64,000 bases of DNA from Escherichia coli (GTDB lineage Bacteria > Pseudomonadota > Gammaproteobacteria > Enterobacterales > Enterobacteriaceae): assembly GCF_016903815.1 (NCBI RefSeq), contig NZ_CP069973.1. One strand, written 5' to 3'. Numbering within the stretch: the first letter of the stretch is position 1; the number at the start of each line of letters is the position of its first letter. Below are positions 5,224 to 32,395 of the stretch, piece by piece. Both the position numbers and the translations under genes were made by a program. The notes under the pieces were generated by a model, which was not told the DNA's origin, made no database searches, and was given only the letters and a program-made list of their open reading frames with translations.

Positions 5224-6012
5224 TTAGCATAGCGTGGCGATAATCACGCTGTCGGCATTAAAGTAGGCCGTGACATTCTGTCCTTGCTGAAGAGAAGTCG
5301 CTTCATTTACCGGCACTGTGGCGCACAGTGTTTGCCCGTCGGGTAGCGCCATTAATACTTCGCACTGCTCTGCGCCGCGCTCAATATGACTAATAATACC
5401 CGGTAATTGGTTGTCGGCGTTTTGTGCGACCGCTTCGTCCTGAGTAATGCCTACCCACGGCGCTTTTAGTAATATCAACACTTCTTTGCCTTCATCCAGC
5501 CCCAGACGCGCGCCGCTTTGTGCGGTAATTGCGACTTTCAGGCGTGTTTTTCCGTCAGCCAGTAAGACATCAACATGCTGTTGAACGTCATCATGATCGC
5601 GGGCGGTGATGGTGCCAAACCATTGGTTACGGGCGCTGGTTTGCAGTGAAAAACGTGAGATCGCGGCCAGCAGGCTGTTCAGCGGCAGGGCGTCATCGTC
5701 ACTTAACACATCAAAGGCTTTTTGCTGGATTTGCGCCAGTAAGTCATAGAGCTGAATCAGTCGCTGACCATAGCGGGTCAGTACTGCGCCGCCGCCACCT
5801 TTACCGCCTGTTGCGCGCTCGACCAGAATATGCTCACTTAACTGATTCATCTCGTTAATGGCATCCCAGGCACTTTTATAGCTGATACCGGCATCTTTCG
5901 CTCCCTGGCTAATGGAACCGGAAAGCGCAATGTGTTTTAGTAGCGAAATGCGGCGCGGGTCGGCGAATAATTTTTGTTGGAGCTTAAGGGTGAGAAGGAT
6001 TTCGGCCTGCAT
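5224..6012 (-). CDS. modE: molybdate-responsive transcriptional regulator
   Basis: 262 aa ORF; divergent from modABC, matches recalled ModE. Confidence 0.95.
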   Translation of the reverse strand: MQAEILLTLKLQQKLFADPRRISLLKHIALSGSISQGAKDAGISYKSAWDAINEMNQLSEHILVERATGGKGGGGAVLTRYGQRLIQLYDLLAQIQQKAFDVLSDDDALPLNSLLAAISRFSLQTSARNQWFGTITARDHDDVQQHVDVLLADGKTRLKVAITAQSGARLGLDEGKEVLILLKAPWVGITQDEAVAQNADNQLPGIISHIERGAEQCEVLMALPDGQTLCATVPVNEATSLQQGQNVTAYFNADSVIIATLC

Positions 6013-6412: not shown

Positions 6413-6436
6413 CGTTATATTGACGCCTACATAACG
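6413..6436. promoter_or_regulatory. ModE operator at modA promoter
   Basis: CGTTATATTGACGCCTACATAACG, inverted CGTTATAT/ATATAACG-like half-sites about 20 bp upstream of modA ATG; fits ModE binding motif. Confidence 0.6.
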
Positions 6437-6455: not shown

Positions 6456-7229
6456 ATGGCTCGTAAATGGTTGAACTTGTTTGCCGGGGCGGCACTCTCT
6501 TTCGCTGTTGCTGGCAATGCACTGGCAGATGAAGGGAAAATCACGGTGTTCGCCGCCGCATCACTGACTAACGCAATGCAGAACATTGCTACGCAGTATA
6601 AAAAAGAGAAAGGCGTGGATGTGGTTTCTTCTTTCGCTTCGTCATCTACTTTGGCCCGTCAGATTGAAGCGGGTGCGCCTGCGGATCTGTTTATTTCTGC
6701 CGATCAGAAATGGATGGATTATGCGGTTGATAAAAAAGCGATCGATACAGCTACACGTCAGACACTGCTCGGCAATAGCCTGGTCGTTGTAGCACCGAAA
6801 GCCAGCGAGCAGAAAGATTTCACCATCGACAGCAAAACTAACTGGACTTCGCTGCTGAATGGCGGTCGCCTCGCGGTTGGCGATCCGGAACATGTCCCTG
6901 CTGGCATTTATGCAAAAGAAGCACTGCAAAAACTGGGCGCATGGGATACGCTCTCCCCGAAACTGGCTCCGGCGGAAGATGTTCGTGGCGCGCTGGCGTT
7001 GGTCGAACGCAATGAAGCGCCGCTGGGTATTGTTTACGGTTCTGACGCAGTTGCCAGCAAAGGGGTAAAAGTGGTTGCCACCTTCCCGGAAGATTCACAT
7101 AAAAAAGTGGAATATCCGGTTGCTGTTGTGGAAGGGCATAATAATGCGACAGTGATAGCATTTTATGATTATCTGAAGGGGCCGCAGGCTGCGGAAATCT
7201 TTAAACGTTACGGATTTACAACCAAGTAA
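6456..7229 (+). CDS. modA: molybdate ABC transporter periplasmic binding protein
   Basis: 257 aa ORF with N-terminal signal peptide; first gene of modABC. Confidence 0.97.
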   Translation: MARKWLNLFAGAALSFAVAGNALADEGKITVFAAASLTNAMQNIATQYKKEKGVDVVSSFASSSTLARQIEAGAPADLFISADQKWMDYAVDKKAIDTATRQTLLGNSLVVVAPKASEQKDFTIDSKTNWTSLLNGGRLAVGDPEHVPAGIYAKEALQKLGAWDTLSPKLAPAEDVRGALALVERNEAPLGIVYGSDAVASKGVKVVATFPEDSHKKVEYPVAVVEGHNNATVIAFYDYLKGPQAAEIFKRYGFTTK

Positions 7230-24728: not shown

Positions 24729-26750
24729 ATGAGTAAACCGTTCAAACTGAATTCCGCTTTTAAACCTTCTGGCGATCAGCCAGAGGCGATTCGACGTCTC
24801 GAAGAGGGGCTGGAAGATGGCCTGGCGCACCAGACGTTACTTGGCGTGACTGGCTCCGGGAAAACCTTCACCATTGCCAATGTCATTGCTGATCTTCAGC
24901 GCCCTACCATGGTACTTGCGCCCAACAAAACGCTGGCGGCCCAGTTGTATGGCGAAATGAAAGAGTTCTTCCCGGAAAACGCGGTGGAATATTTCGTCTC
25001 CTACTACGACTACTATCAGCCGGAAGCCTATGTACCGAGTTCCGACACCTTCATTGAGAAAGATGCCTCGGTTAACGAACATATTGAACAGATGCGTTTG
25101 TCCGCCACCAAAGCGATGCTGGAGCGGCGTGATGTGGTTGTGGTGGCGTCTGTTTCCGCGATTTATGGTCTGGGCGATCCTGATTTATATCTCAAGATGA
25201 TGCTCCATCTCACGGTCGGCATGATTATCGATCAGCGCGCGATCCTGCGCCGACTGGCGGAGCTGCAATACGCTCGTAATGATCAGGCATTCCAGCGTGG
25301 TACTTTCCGCGTTCGTGGTGAGGTGATTGATATCTTCCCGGCAGAATCGGATGACATTGCACTTCGCGTGGAGCTGTTTGACGAGGAAGTGGAACGATTG
25401 TCGTTATTTGACCCGCTCACCGGGCAGATTGTTTCCACTATTCCACGTTTTACCATCTACCCGAAAACGCACTACGTCACGCCGCGCGAGCGCATCGTAC
25501 AGGCGATGGAAGAGATCAAAGAAGAACTGGCCGCCAGACGCAAAGTGCTGTTGGAGAACAACAAGTTGCTTGAAGAGCAGCGGCTGACCCAGCGTACCCA
25601 GTTTGATCTGGAGATGATGAACGAGCTGGGCTACTGTTCCGGGATTGAGAACTACTCGCGCTTCCTCTCCGGTCGTGGACCGGGTGAGCCACCGCCGACG
25701 CTGTTTGATTACCTGCCTGCCGATGGGCTGCTGGTGGTCGATGAATCACACGTCACCATTCCGCAAATTGGCGGCATGTATCGCGGTGACCGGGCGCGTA
25801 AAGAGACGCTGGTGGAGTACGGCTTCCGCCTGCCATCAGCGCTGGATAACCGTCCGCTGAAATTTGAAGAGTTCGAAGCATTAGCGCCGCAAACCATCTA
25901 TGTTTCGGCGACGCCGGGTAATTACGAGCTGGAAAAATCCGGCGGCGATGTGGTGGATCAGGTGGTGCGTCCAACCGGATTGCTTGACCCGATAATTGAA
26001 GTGCGGCCGGTGGCGACACAGGTTGATGATCTTCTTTCGGAGATTCGTCAGCGAGCGGCAATTAACGAACGCGTACTGGTTACAACTCTGACCAAGCGAA
26101 TGGCGGAAGATCTCACGGAATATCTCGAAGAACACGGCGAGCGCGTGCGTTATCTTCACTCCGATATCGACACCGTCGAGCGTATGGAGATTATCCGCGA
26201 CTTGCGTCTGGGTGAGTTCGACGTGCTGGTAGGGATCAACTTACTGCGCGAAGGTCTGGATATGCCGGAAGTGTCGCTGGTGGCGATCCTCGACGCTGAC
26301 AAAGAAGGCTTCCTACGTTCCGAACGTTCGTTGATCCAGACTATTGGTCGTGCGGCGCGTAACGTTAACGGTAAAGCGATTCTCTACGGCGATAAGATCA
26401 CCCCGTCAATGGCGAAAGCGATTGGCGAAACCGAACGTCGTCGCGAGAAACAGCAGAAGTACAACGAGGAACACGGTATTACGCCGCAGGGCTTGAACAA
26501 GAAAGTGGTCGATATCCTGGCGCTGGGGCAGAACATTGCTAAAACCAAAGCGAAGGGCAGAGGAAAATCGCGACCGATTGTTGAGCCGGATAATGTGCCG
26601 ATGGATATGTCGCCGAAAGCGTTACAGCAGAAAATCCATGAACTGGAAGGGCTGATGATGCAACACGCGCAAAATCTGGAGTTCGAAGAAGCGGCGCAAA
26701 TTCGTGACCAGTTGCATCAGCTGCGTGAGTTGTTTATTGCCGCGTCGTGA
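24729..26750 (+). CDS. uvrB: excinuclease ABC subunit B
   Basis: 673 aa ORF with Walker A (GVTGSGKT). Confidence 0.98.
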
Positions 26751-26787: not shown

Positions 26788-27756
<969 letters not shown>

Positions 27757-27893
27757 TTAACCTGCCAATATTGAGGATACAAACTATTTTCTTCTACCTC
27801 TAAAGGACGATGCACGCTATGCCTCTCTGATGATGTATATCAAAGTAAAACCGCCATTTTCCCTTATTCTGTAGCGAAATAGCACGATCATGA

Positions 27894-27917
27894 CGCTATA
27901 TACATGATTACATAGCG
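27894..27917. promoter_or_regulatory. putative ModE site in moaA promoter
   Basis: CGCTATATACATGATTACATAGCG, inverted CGCTATATA/TA(C)ATAGCG half-sites. Confidence 0.5.
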
Positions 27918-27974
27918 AAAGTGTGGATGGTAAAAATCTCATTTACGCGCTAGTATCGGCTTAACCACTAAACA

Positions 27975-28092
27975 CTCTAGCCTCTGCACCTGGGTCAACT
28001 GATACGGTGCTTTGGCCGTGACAATGCTCGTAAAGATTGCCACCAGGGCGAAGGAAGAAATGACTTCGCCTCCCGTATCTGGAAAGGTGTAC
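27975..28092 (+). ncRNA. moaA 5' leader, putative Moco (molybdenum cofactor) riboswitch
   Basis: Long structured leader (CCUCUGCACCUGGGUCAACUGAUACGGUGC...GCCACCAGGGCGAAGG...) ending at the moaA RBS; placement and sequence fit the recalled Moco RNA motif; extent approximate. Confidence 0.55.
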
Positions 28093-29082
28093 ATGGCTTC
28101 ACAACTGACTGATGCATTTGCGCGTAAGTTTTACTACTTGCGCCTGTCGATTACTGATGTGTGTAACTTTCGTTGCACCTACTGCCTGCCGGATGGCTAC
28201 AAACCGAGCGGCGTCACCAATAAAGGCTTTCTTACCGTCGATGAAATTCGCCGGGTTACGCGCGCCTTTGCCAGTCTGGGCACCGAAAAAGTGCGCCTGA
28301 CAGGCGGTGAGCCGTCTTTACGCCGCGACTTTACCGATATCATCGCCGCTGTGCGGGAAAACGACGCTATCCGCCAGATTGCGGTCACCACCAATGGTTA
28401 CCGTCTGGAACGCGATGTGGCGAACTGGCGCGATGCGGGACTTACTGGCATCAACGTCAGCGTTGATAGCCTTGACGCTCGCCAGTTTCATGCCATTACC
28501 GGGCAGGATAAATTCAACCAGGTCATGGCAGGGATCGATGCTGCATTTGAGGCCGGTTTTGAGAAGGTCAAAGTCAATACCGTGCTGATGCGTGATGTTA
28601 ATCATCATCAGCTCGACACCTTTCTGAACTGGATCCAGCATCGCCCTATCCAGCTGCGTTTCATCGAATTGATGGAAACGGGCGAGGGCAGCGAGCTCTT
28701 CCGTAAGCATCACATCTCTGGTCAGGTTCTGCGTGACGAGCTACTGCGTCGCGGCTGGATCCACCAATTACGTCAACGCAGCGACGGTCCCGCGCAAGTC
28801 TTTTGTCATCCGGATTACGCCGGAGAGATTGGCCTTATCATGCCGTATGAAAAAGACTTCTGCGCCACTTGCAACCGCCTGCGCGTTTCCTCCATTGGTA
28901 AACTCCATCTCTGCCTGTTTGGTGAAGGCGGCGTTAACCTGCGCGATCTGCTGGAAGACGATACCCAGCAACAGGCGCTGGAAGCGCGTATTTCAGCGGC
29001 GCTGCGGGAGAAGAAACAGACCCATTTCCTGCACCAAAACAACACCGGTATTACGCAAAACTTATCGTACATTGGCGGCTAA
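28093..29082 (+). CDS. moaA: GTP 3',8-cyclase (radical SAM)
   Basis: ORF track 356 aa; ATG at 28093 ([31 protein letters not shown]) gives 329 aa with CxxxCxxC. Confidence 0.95.
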
Positions 29083-29103
29083 AACGTCAAAAGGAGAGAT
29101 CAG

Positions 29104-29616
29104 ATGAGTCAGGTAAGCACTGAATTTATCCCGACCCGTATTGCTATTCTTACGGTTTCTAATCGTCGTGGTGAAGAAGACGATACCTCCGGTCACTATC
29201 TGCGCGATTCGGCGCAGGAAGCGGGCCATCACGTTGTCGATAAAGCCATTGTGAAAGAAAACCGCTACGCTATTCGCGCTCAGGTATCTGCGTGGATCGC
29301 CAGCGACGATGTACAAGTGGTATTGATTACGGGGGGGACTGGCCTGACGGAAGGAGATCAGGCTCCCGAAGCGCTGCTGCCGTTGTTCGACCGTGAAGTT
29401 GAAGGTTTTGGTGAAGTGTTCCGGATGTTGTCGTTCGAAGAGATTGGCACTTCCACGTTGCAATCTCGTGCGGTAGCGGGCGTCGCTAACAAAACGCTGA
29501 TTTTCGCCATGCCGGGTTCGACCAAAGCGTGCCGTACCGCATGGGAAAATATCATTGCGCCGCAGCTCGATGCCCGTACGCGTCCGTGTAATTTCCATCC
29601 ACATTTGAAGAAATAA
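29104..29616 (+). CDS. moaB: molybdenum cofactor biosynthesis protein B
   Basis: 170 aa ORF. Confidence 0.97.
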
Positions 29617-29618
29617 GT

Positions 29619-30104
29619 ATGTCGCAACTGACCCATATCAACGCCGCTGGCGAAGCGCACATGGTGGATGTCTCCGCCAAAGCGGAAACCGTGCGTGAAG
29701 CGCGCGCCGAAGCCTTTGTCACCATGCGCAGCGAGACGCTGGCGATGATTATTGATGGTCGCCACCACAAAGGCGACGTATTTGCCACTGCGCGTATCGC
29801 CGGTATTCAGGCGGCAAAACGCACCTGGGATCTGATCCCGCTGTGTCACCCGCTGATGCTCAGCAAAGTTGAAGTCAATTTACAGGCCGAGCCGGAGCAC
29901 AATCGGGTACGTATAGAAACCTTATGCCGCCTGACCGGGAAAACCGGTGTCGAAATGGAAGCGTTAACCGCGGCCTCCGTGGCGGCGCTGACCATTTATG
30001 ACATGTGCAAAGCGGTGCAAAAAGATATGGTAATTGGTCCGGTACGTTTGCTGGCGAAGAGTGGCGGCAAGTCGGGTGACTTTAAGGTGGAAGCGGATGA
30101 TTAA
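29619..30104 (+). CDS. moaC: cyclic pyranopterin monophosphate synthase
   Basis: 161 aa ORF. Confidence 0.97.
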
Positions 30105-30342
30105 AGTTCTTTTTTTCGCCCAGGTGCGCGAGTTGGTGGGAACAGATGCAACCGAAGTGGCTGCAGATTTCCCAACCGTTGAAGCGTTACGCCAACATCT
30201 GGCTGCGCAGAGCGATCGCTGGGCGCTGGCGCTGGAAGATGGCAAATTGCTGGCTGCCGTCAACCAGACGCTGGTGAGTTTTGACCATCCGCTGACTGAC
30301 GGCGACGAAGTGGCTTTCTTCCCGCCGGTAACCGGAGGTTAA
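30097..30342 (+). CDS. moaD: molybdopterin synthase sulfur-carrier subunit
   Basis: Internal ATG of 102 aa ORF gives 81 aa [13 protein letters not shown]...FFPPVTGG (C-terminal GG). Confidence 0.93.
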
Positions 30343-30343
30343 G

Positions 30344-30796
30344 ATGGCAGAAACCAAAATTGTTGTCGGCCCGCAGCCATTCAGCGTAGGAGAAGAGTAT
30401 CCGTGGCTGGCGGAGCGTGATGAAGACGGTGCGGTAGTCACCTTTACCGGTAAGGTGCGCAACCATAACCTTGGCGACAGCGTCAAAGCATTAACCCTCG
30501 AACACTATCCGGGGATGACTGAAAAAGCACTGGCAGAAATTGTCGATGAAGCGCGTAACCGCTGGCCGCTGGGGCGCGTCACGGTGATTCACCGCATCGG
30601 GGAATTATGGCCGGGCGATGAAATCGTTTTTGTCGGTGTCACCAGTGCGCATCGCAGCAGTGCGTTTGAAGCCGGGCAGTTTATTATGGATTATCTCAAA
30701 ACCCGCGCACCGTTCTGGAAGCGCGAAGCCACGCCGGAAGGCGACCGCTGGGTCGAAGCCCGGGAGAGCGATCAGCAGGCGGCAAAACGCTGGTAG
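30344..30796 (+). CDS. moaE: molybdopterin synthase catalytic subunit
   Basis: 150 aa ORF. Confidence 0.97.
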   Translation: MAETKIVVGPQPFSVGEEYPWLAERDEDGAVVTFTGKVRNHNLGDSVKALTLEHYPGMTEKALAEIVDEARNRWPLGRVTVIHRIGELWPGDEIVFVGVTSAHRSSAFEAGQFIMDYLKTRAPFWKREATPEGDRWVEARESDQQAAKRW

Positions 30797-31683: not shown

Positions 31684-32395
31684 TGCACAGAAAACCCCCA
31701 GCTAGGCTGGGGGTTCCGGAAAGCTTTCAGCTTTGAGCCAGTTATTAAAACCCCTTTTGATTTGTTAAAACACCTTGCGGTCTGGCAACTGCAAGTGTCA
31801 AACAAGAAATCAAAAGGGGGTCCCAATGGGGAACGAAAAGAGCTTAGCGCACACCCGATGGAACTGTAAATATCACATAGTTTTTGCGCCAAAATACCGA
31901 AGACAGGTGTTCTACAGAGAGAAGCGTAGAGCAATAGGCAGTATTTTGAGAAAGCTGTGTGAGTGGAAAAGCGTACGGATTCTGGAAGCTGAATGCTGTG
32001 CAGATCATATCCATATGCTTGTGGAGATCCCGCCCAAAATGAGCGTATCCGGGTTTATGGGATATCTGAAAGGGAAAAGCAGTCTGATGCTTTACGAGCA
32101 GTTTGGTGATTTGAAATTCAAATACAGGAACAGGGAGTTCTGGTGCAGAGGGTACTACGTCGATACAGTGGGTAAGAACACGGCGAAGATACAGGATTAC
32201 ATAAAGCACCAGCTTGAAGAGGATAAAATGGGAGAGCAGTTATCGATTCCCTATCCGGGCAGCCCGTTTACGGGCCGTAAGTAACGAAGTTGGATGCAAA
32301 TGTCAGATCGTGTGCGCCTGTTAGGGCGCGGCTGGTAAGAGAGCCTTATAGGCGCATTTGAAAAACCTCCGGCTATGCCGGAGGATATTTATTTC
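31684..32395 (+). mobile_element. IS200-family insertion sequence (IS200/IS605 family, about 0.7 kb)
   Basis: Contains Y1 transposase gene; left-end perfect palindrome AAACCCCCAGC-TAG-GCTGGGGGTT and a right-end subterminal hairpin CCTCCGGC-TAT-GCCGGAGG; ends approximate (about ±15 bp). Confidence 0.7.
31826..32284 (+). CDS. tnpA: IS200 TnpA (HUH/Y1 transposase, 152 aa)
   Basis: MGNEKSLAHTRWNCKYHIVFAPKYRR...HIHMLVEIPPK... closely matches recalled Salmonella IS200 TnpA; ORF track's upstream extension rejected. Confidence 0.92.
   Translation: MGNEKSLAHTRWNCKYHIVFAPKYRRQVFYREKRRAIGSILRKLCEWKSVRILEAECCADHIHMLVEIPPKMSVSGFMGYLKGKSSLMLYEQFGDLKFKYRNREFWCRGYYVDTVGKNTAKIQDYIKHQLEEDKMGEQLSIPYPGSPFTGRK

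Follow-up and report, generated by a model that had tools for sequence, protein, structure and literature searches.

The moaA gene of Escherichia coli is preceded by an intergenic region of 396 nt, which raises the question whether the leader of its mRNA carries a regulatory RNA and how such an RNA might act on the molybdenum cofactor (Moco) synthesis genes behind it. We addressed this question for a chromosomal stretch of 64,000 nucleotides from contig NZ_CP069973.1 (assembly GCF_016903815.1), hereafter called the window. Here, uvrB (24729-26750) is followed by yvcK/ybhK (on the minus strand, from 26788), the intergenic region, moaA-moaE, and ybhL. According to the open reading frames and the PGAP names, the regulated operon extends on the plus strand from 28093 to 30796 and comprises moaA (28093-29082), moaB (29104-29616), moaC (29619-30104), moaD (30097-30342), and moaE (30344-30796), whose products contain the Pfam domains Radical_SAM and Mob_synth_C, MoCF_biosynth, MoaC, ThiS, and MoaE. 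The original prediction had placed a highly structured leader of about 120 nt at 27975-28092, downstream of a ModE-like palindrome, and had likened it to the Moco RNA motif that controls translation of moaABCDE.

A cmscan search of all 4227 Rfam families identified RF01055, the Moco RNA motif, at 27961-28105 on the plus strand with 103.4 bits (gathering score 36) and an E-value of 1.2e-24. The match was found on this strand only and was full length, covering model positions 1-135 of 135, so that the covariance-model check named in the prediction turned out positive. With permissive filters, no Rfam family besides RF01055 reached E ≤ 1 between 27600 and 28400. A PGAP feature named "molybdenum cofactor riboswitch" has the same coordinates as the Rfam match in the 100%-identical E. 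coli strain 7/2. The leader RNA is base-for-base the same as that of K-12 MG1655 in an alignment over 27962-28110, so that the Moco RNA class was defined on exactly the RNA present here. The assignment to this motif was thus correct, as was the position immediately before the moaA start codon (ATG 28093-28095). The predicted interval lay in the right place, but it clipped 3 nt of the 5′ strand of helix P1, and the Rfam match is wider. The predicted length fits the core of the element, which measures 119 nt from P1 to P1 (27972-28090) and agrees with the geometry of the published 138-nt construct, which extended beyond P1 by 9 nt on the 5′ side and by 10 nt on the 3′ side (Regulski 2008, PMC2408646).

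With high confidence, we regard this segment as the Moco riboswitch of E. coli moaA, which lies in the approximately 130-nt 5′ UTR of moaABCDE and acts in cis as a translational OFF switch, with the full Rfam match and PGAP feature (27961-28105, plus strand) representing an aptamer with a built-in expression platform. The assignment is based on family membership, structure, the location of the Shine-Dalgarno (SD) sequence in P1, and the identity to K-12, together with published data showing that repression requires Moco synthesis and P3 pairing. The element has already been described and annotated, and its classification holds nothing new. The 441-nt segment 27760-28200 is 100% identical in many E. 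coli strains and was found in 5424 of 5426 complete genomes. As a side observation, it occurs at 5435 places in the 5426 complete E. coli genomes, two of them on plasmids, and a few genomes have two copies.

For the anatomy of the aptamer, the Rfam consensus structure was projected onto the window sequence. All five helices P1-P5 map onto 27963-28099, with 34 of the 41 consensus pairs being canonical and three extra pairs present in P3. The non-canonical consensus pairs are located in the P2 internal loop, at one mismatch in P3, in the sheared G.A/A.G pairs under the P4 loop, and at one A.A at the base of P1, and the junction sequences AGCC, GCC, AGGG, and CCUCCC...UGGAAAGG agree with the consensus. 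The P2 hairpin (27980-28016, plus strand as for all elements of the aptamer) is formed by 27980-27990 and 28006-28016 with a UCU/UUU internal loop, and distally by 27994-27996 and 28001-28003. Between these two stems lies a variant of the tetraloop-receptor region, reading CCUGGG/UACGG in E. coli versus CCUAAG/UAUGG in the family consensus. In the P3 hairpin (28018-28043), GUGACAAU (28018-28025) pairs with AUUGCCAC (28036-28043) with one A.C mismatch. The P4 hairpin (28046-28071) consists of 28046-28056 paired with 28061-28071, and here the GAAA tetraloop (28057-28060) is present on top of two sheared G.A pairs. The mini-hairpin P5 (28072-28082), in which CC (28072-28073) pairs with GG (28081-28082), lies within the most conserved core, CCUCCCGUAUCUGGAAAGG.

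P1 connects the aptamer to the translation start. Its 5′ strand (27963-27977) has the core ACAC-C (27972-27975 plus 27977), which pairs with GGUGU (28086-28090), and weak outer pairs at 27963, 27964, and 27966 extend the helix as far as 27963/28099. The expression platform (28083-28099) includes the SD sequence AAAGGUG (28083-28089), the moaA start codon AUG (28093-28095), and the outer P1 positions 28096, 28098, and 28099. The SD bases GGUG (28086-28089) thus are the 3′ strand of P1 and end 3 nt before the AUG (28093). The same arrangement, with the SD sequence in P1 and the platform built into the aptamer, was given for E. coli previously (PMC2408646).

Homologous loci were collected by scanning one genome per species with the conserved-core pattern GCCTCCCGTNNNTGGAAAGG, which yielded at least 120 loci in Proteobacteria, Bacillota, Actinomycetota, Chloroflexota, Acidobacteriota, and other phyla. 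Of 20 loci spot-checked with Rfam, 18 reached the RF01055 gathering score. Among the matches listed, 46 of 104 first downstream open reading frames contained the MoaA radical-SAM motif; others that were sampled encoded aldehyde:ferredoxin oxidoreductase, MoeA, a periplasmic binding protein of the tungstate/molybdate type, and molybdopterin oxidoreductase. Some loci occurred in multiple copies. Two Moco motifs are located about 150 nt apart on opposite strands of one Actinomycetota contig (L060, 727-845 minus and 996-1116 plus), and three separate loci were found in each of two MAGs (L006, L007, and L008 in one and L058-L060 in the other), consistent with the multi-copy and tandem arrangements reported by Regulski 2008 (PMC2408646).

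A model of our own, built from the window and three enterobacterial orthologues with the Rfam-derived structure, gave 90 matches in 100 sources. In the resulting alignment, which was fitted to the model structure and in which the retrieval pattern had preset P5, the junction columns, and the end of P4, 89.5% of the cells held standard pairs compared to 64.4% in shuffles and 34-46% with slid partners. A compensatory change on both sides was found in 37 of 44 pairs and the covariation score was 0.489 versus about 0.06; none of 500 shuffles reached any of these measures. P1 was supported by covariation in helices 1-4 of the alignment. All 14 pairs of P2 showed compensatory changes, as did all eight of P3, where 93.3% of the cells were paired, and seven of the 11 pairs of P4, whose three 3′-terminal pairs were fixed by the retrieval pattern. 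P5 was invariant and uninformative for covariation because its columns had been fixed in the same way.

The P3 columns were gapped in 47-64 of the 90 alignment rows. Variants of the Moco motif lacking P3, which have been proposed as sensors of the tungsten cofactor (Tuco), share P1, P2, P4, P5, and the junction core with the window RNA, and some of the retrieved loci precede genes for aldehyde:ferredoxin oxidoreductase or for tungstate-type binding proteins. Unlike these variants, the window RNA possesses a full 8-bp P3 (28018-28025/28036-28043), which, judged by sequence, assigns it to the Moco-type group and not to the tungsten-cofactor type. Deletion of P3 in the E. coli RNA destroyed regulation and did not switch specificity (PMC2408646).

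Transcription of the operon has been attributed to two promoters, the FNR-dependent S2 and S1, which is activated by ModE-molybdate (PMC2408646, citing Anderson 2000). The distance from S1 to the moaA start codon was given as 131 nt, and this segment mediates repression by Moco (PMC2408646). The 5′-UTR clone of Adams 2021 begins with AACCACTAAACAC, corresponding to position 27963 (PMC7815308). Based on this clone and on the 131-nt distance, transcription from S1 would start at about 27962-27963, and the likely -10 hexamer is a weak TAGTAT at 27951-27956 on the plus strand, read by eye. S2, taken to lie at -87 from S1 (PMC2408646, legend of Fig. 2), would be near 27875. A box with one mismatch to the FNR consensus TTGAT-N4-ATCAA, ATGATGTATATCAA, is present at 27830-27843 on the plus strand. 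It is centred about 39 nt upstream of the presumed S2 start and by this position is probably the FNR site of S2; the FNR pattern by itself was not significant, with five matches in the window versus 2.3 expected. A scan with the sigma-70 consensus between 27650 and 28200 revealed no strong promoter, as expected for activator-dependent promoters, and the promoter positions consequently rest on the literature and the -10 hexamer read by eye.

The palindrome claimed by the original prediction is real. It is situated upstream of S1 at 27894-27917 (plus strand) and reads CGCTATATA-CATGAT-TACATAGCG, deviating at one position from the core of the ModE consensus of E. coli, ATCGNTATATA-N6-TATATANCGAT (PMC545781). 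The pattern occurs twice in the 64 kb of the window compared to 0.01 occurrences expected. Both the riboswitch and the ModE operator had thus been placed to within a few bases from the letters alone, which makes this locus a correct positive control. The second palindrome matching the ModE consensus, CGTTATATTGACGCCTACATAACG, is located at 6413-6436, 20 nt before an open reading frame of 257 aa (6456-7229) that is followed by frames of 229 and 352 aa, and a divergent frame of 262 aa lies at 5224-6012. By their size and order, these frames look like modABC and a divergent modE, and the position in front of a modA-sized frame is what we take to be the expected place of the classic ModE operator.

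The element lies in the 5′ UTR directly upstream of moaA-moaE, the genes for Moco synthesis, and its effect on translation has been studied with the K-12 leader. When this leader was fused in frame to lacZ under control of a constitutive promoter, induction of moaABCDE caused a more than 3-fold repression (PMC2408646), in agreement with the predicted control of moaABCDE translation. Mutant M1, in which P3 is disrupted, lost repression, and the compensatory mutant M2 regained it (PMC2408646). Repression was also lost in mogA, modC, and moeA knockouts and was kept in a mobA knockout (PMC2408646). The requirement for modC, mogA, and moeA and the dispensability of mobA point to Moco itself as the signal rather than to molybdate, MPT, or bis-MGD. 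The RNA-binding protein CsrA was reported to bind two sites in the aptamer and to activate translation (PMC7652899; PMC4347634). The leader contains exactly two GGA motifs, one inside P4 (28053-28055) and one at P5 (28081-28083), which are candidate CsrA sites. When refolded in vitro, the RNA was reported to adopt more than one conformation (PMC13271884).

Taken together, the most likely mechanism is the following. Transcription is activated by ModE-molybdate bound at 27894-27917 in the case of S1 and depends on FNR in the case of S2, and the leader folds into the five-stem aptamer P1-P5, in which the GAAA tetraloop of P4 probably docks on P2, a predicted contact. Abundant Moco would bind to the multistem junction and lock P1, thereby hiding the moaA SD bases GGUG. 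As these bases form the 3′ strand of P1, ribosomes could not load, and MoaA-E would not be made. According to the literature, moaA mRNA that is not translated undergoes Rho-dependent termination inside the open reading frame. Overall, this would constitute feedback by the end product of the pathway, a control layer on Moco synthesis placed on top of the transcriptional controls by FNR (anaerobiosis) and ModE (molybdate). In this scheme, direct contact between Moco and the RNA, and with it the exact ligand species, is presumed.

Several alternatives to this mechanism were considered. The assumption that an ordinary 5′ UTR looks structured here by chance might seem to be favored by single-sequence folding. 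The minimum free energy (MFE) of the leader was -42.0 kcal/mol compared to a mean of -36.0 for shuffled sequences (z = -1.57), 14 of 200 shuffles folded as well, and the opposite strand folded slightly better (z = -2.47). Moreover, the conserved structure imposed on the leader sequence had only -26.6 kcal/mol, far from the -42.0 of the MFE fold. The description "highly structured" is therefore not borne out by folding energy but is justified by the covariance model and by covariation, and it is these two lines of evidence rather than thermodynamic folding that demonstrate structure beyond chance. RNA folding of 27960-28100, which had been proposed as a check, would be misleading, because the MFE fold departs from the conserved structure and its stability is not significant. 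In view of the E-value of 1.2e-24, the covariation in 90 homologues, and the identity to an experimentally tested regulatory RNA, a chance origin of the structure is untenable. The MFE fold pairs the 5′ strand of P2 (UGCACCU, 27985-27991) with the SD region (AGGUGUA, 28085-28091), which is incompatible with the aptamer and also masks the SD sequence. This gives rise to the idea that the leader is not a simple two-state Moco sensor, and that in the ligand-free RNA the pairing of the P2 strand with the SD region represents a second SD-masking state that is resolved by CsrA at the two GGA motifs. Such a state would account for the apparent absence of P2 in in-line probing and for the activation of translation by CsrA. 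Without ligand, much of P2 was not supported by in-line probing (Regulski 2008, PMC2408646). As a conserved feature, the helix 27985-27991/28085-28091 was rejected: among the 90 homologues, 63.2% of its cells were paired, as many as in the average shuffle (63.3%), and 281 of 500 shuffles were as good; the sequences from Enterobacteriaceae vary too little for a family-specific test. We consider a second masking state of this kind unlikely. In a weaker version of this reading, the true ligand may be other than free Moco.

The nature of the signal leads to another alternative, in which the leader is a conserved regulatory RNA that responds not to Moco but to a different pathway-dependent signal, such as a complex of Moco with a carrier protein, an MPT-related species, or another metabolite, so that it would not be a genuine small-molecule riboswitch. 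Direct binding of Moco, which is unstable, was beyond the reach of the study of Regulski 2008 (PMC2408646), a paper from 2024 still called the exact Moco-related metabolite unidentified (PMC10845959), and our literature search yielded neither a solved structure of the Moco riboswitch nor a report of direct binding. In addition, the aptamer does contain binding sites for a protein, CsrA (PMC7652899). However, the aptamer keeps its architecture and its junction in many phyla, with strong covariation, a pattern that typifies RNAs sensing a metabolite directly and is difficult to explain by a single protein partner common to all of them. Furthermore, the knockout phenotypes locate the signal downstream of MoeA and upstream of MobA, i.e., at Moco itself, and no protein factor for the Moco response of the leader was known to Regulski 2008 (PMC2408646). 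An indirect sensor is thus very unlikely and, like a more complex multi-state switch, would leave the classification of the element unchanged. A different question is whether the primary control is premature transcription termination in the leader or the early open reading frame, Rho-dependent or intrinsic, rather than a block of ribosome binding. Adams 2021 mapped a strong RNA 3′ end at K-12 position 817052 (PMC7815308, supplement), which by the K-12 alignment corresponds to 28101 on the plus strand, 8 nt into the moaA open reading frame and just past the aptamer. The same study reported a bicyclomycin-sensitive region within moaA (K-12 817336, window 28385) and a more than 2-fold increased expression of a moaA fusion in the rhoR66S mutant (PMC7815308). 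The 3′ end at 28101 was nevertheless flagged "riboswitch" and listed as not Rho-dependent (PMC7815308); it probably represents the terminus of a stable RNA of about 139 nt, consisting essentially of the riboswitch. The leader lacks a hairpin resembling an intrinsic terminator, and the only hairpin of this type with a U-tract between 27650 and 28200 is located at 27681-27694, upstream of the promoters. Since the SD sequence is physically part of P1, since regulation was seen with a translational fusion under a constitutive promoter (PMC2408646), and since Rho-dependent termination in an untranslated open reading frame is an expected consequence of translational repression, termination as the primary mechanism appears extremely improbable.

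A Moco-responsive switch acting at ribosome binding can be compared to other riboswitches of E. coli. The TPP riboswitch of thiM and the cobalamin riboswitch of btuB are translational OFF switches in which the SD sequence is sequestered on ligand binding. The moaA leader has in common with them the feedback by an end-product cofactor, the control at ribosome binding, and secondary effects by Rho or mRNA decay. Unlike in thiM and btuB, the SD sequence of moaA lies within P1 of the aptamer itself and not in a separate downstream platform, ligand binding by the aptamer is inferred, and the aptamer itself harbors binding sites of CsrA, a global RNA-binding protein (PMC7652899).

The closest known system is the K-12 moaA Moco RNA ("138 moaA" and "149 moaA" of Regulski 2008), which matches the window in sequence from 27962 until past the start codon and has the same neighbors (yvcK/ybhK upstream, moaABCDE and ybhL downstream), the same ModE box, P1-P5, and the SD sequence in P1. 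Within the 354-nt upstream region, the window differs from K-12 by three single bases, none of which is located in a helix: T instead of C at 27826, 4 nt before the FNR-like box; G instead of A at 27947, in the S1 spacer; and T instead of A at 27961, 1-2 nt before the S1 start and at the unpaired first position of the Rfam match. A further difference is found behind ybhL, where the window and strain 7/2 carry a copy of IS200 that K-12 lacks, ybhM following directly after ybhL in the latter. In this part of the window, a match to STnc490 (RF01405, an Hfq-binding RNA) was observed at 31693-31816 on the plus strand with 146 bits, followed by an IS200-type tnpA open reading frame (31826-32284); the STnc490 model evidently corresponds to the left end of IS200 and the 5′ UTR of tnpA.
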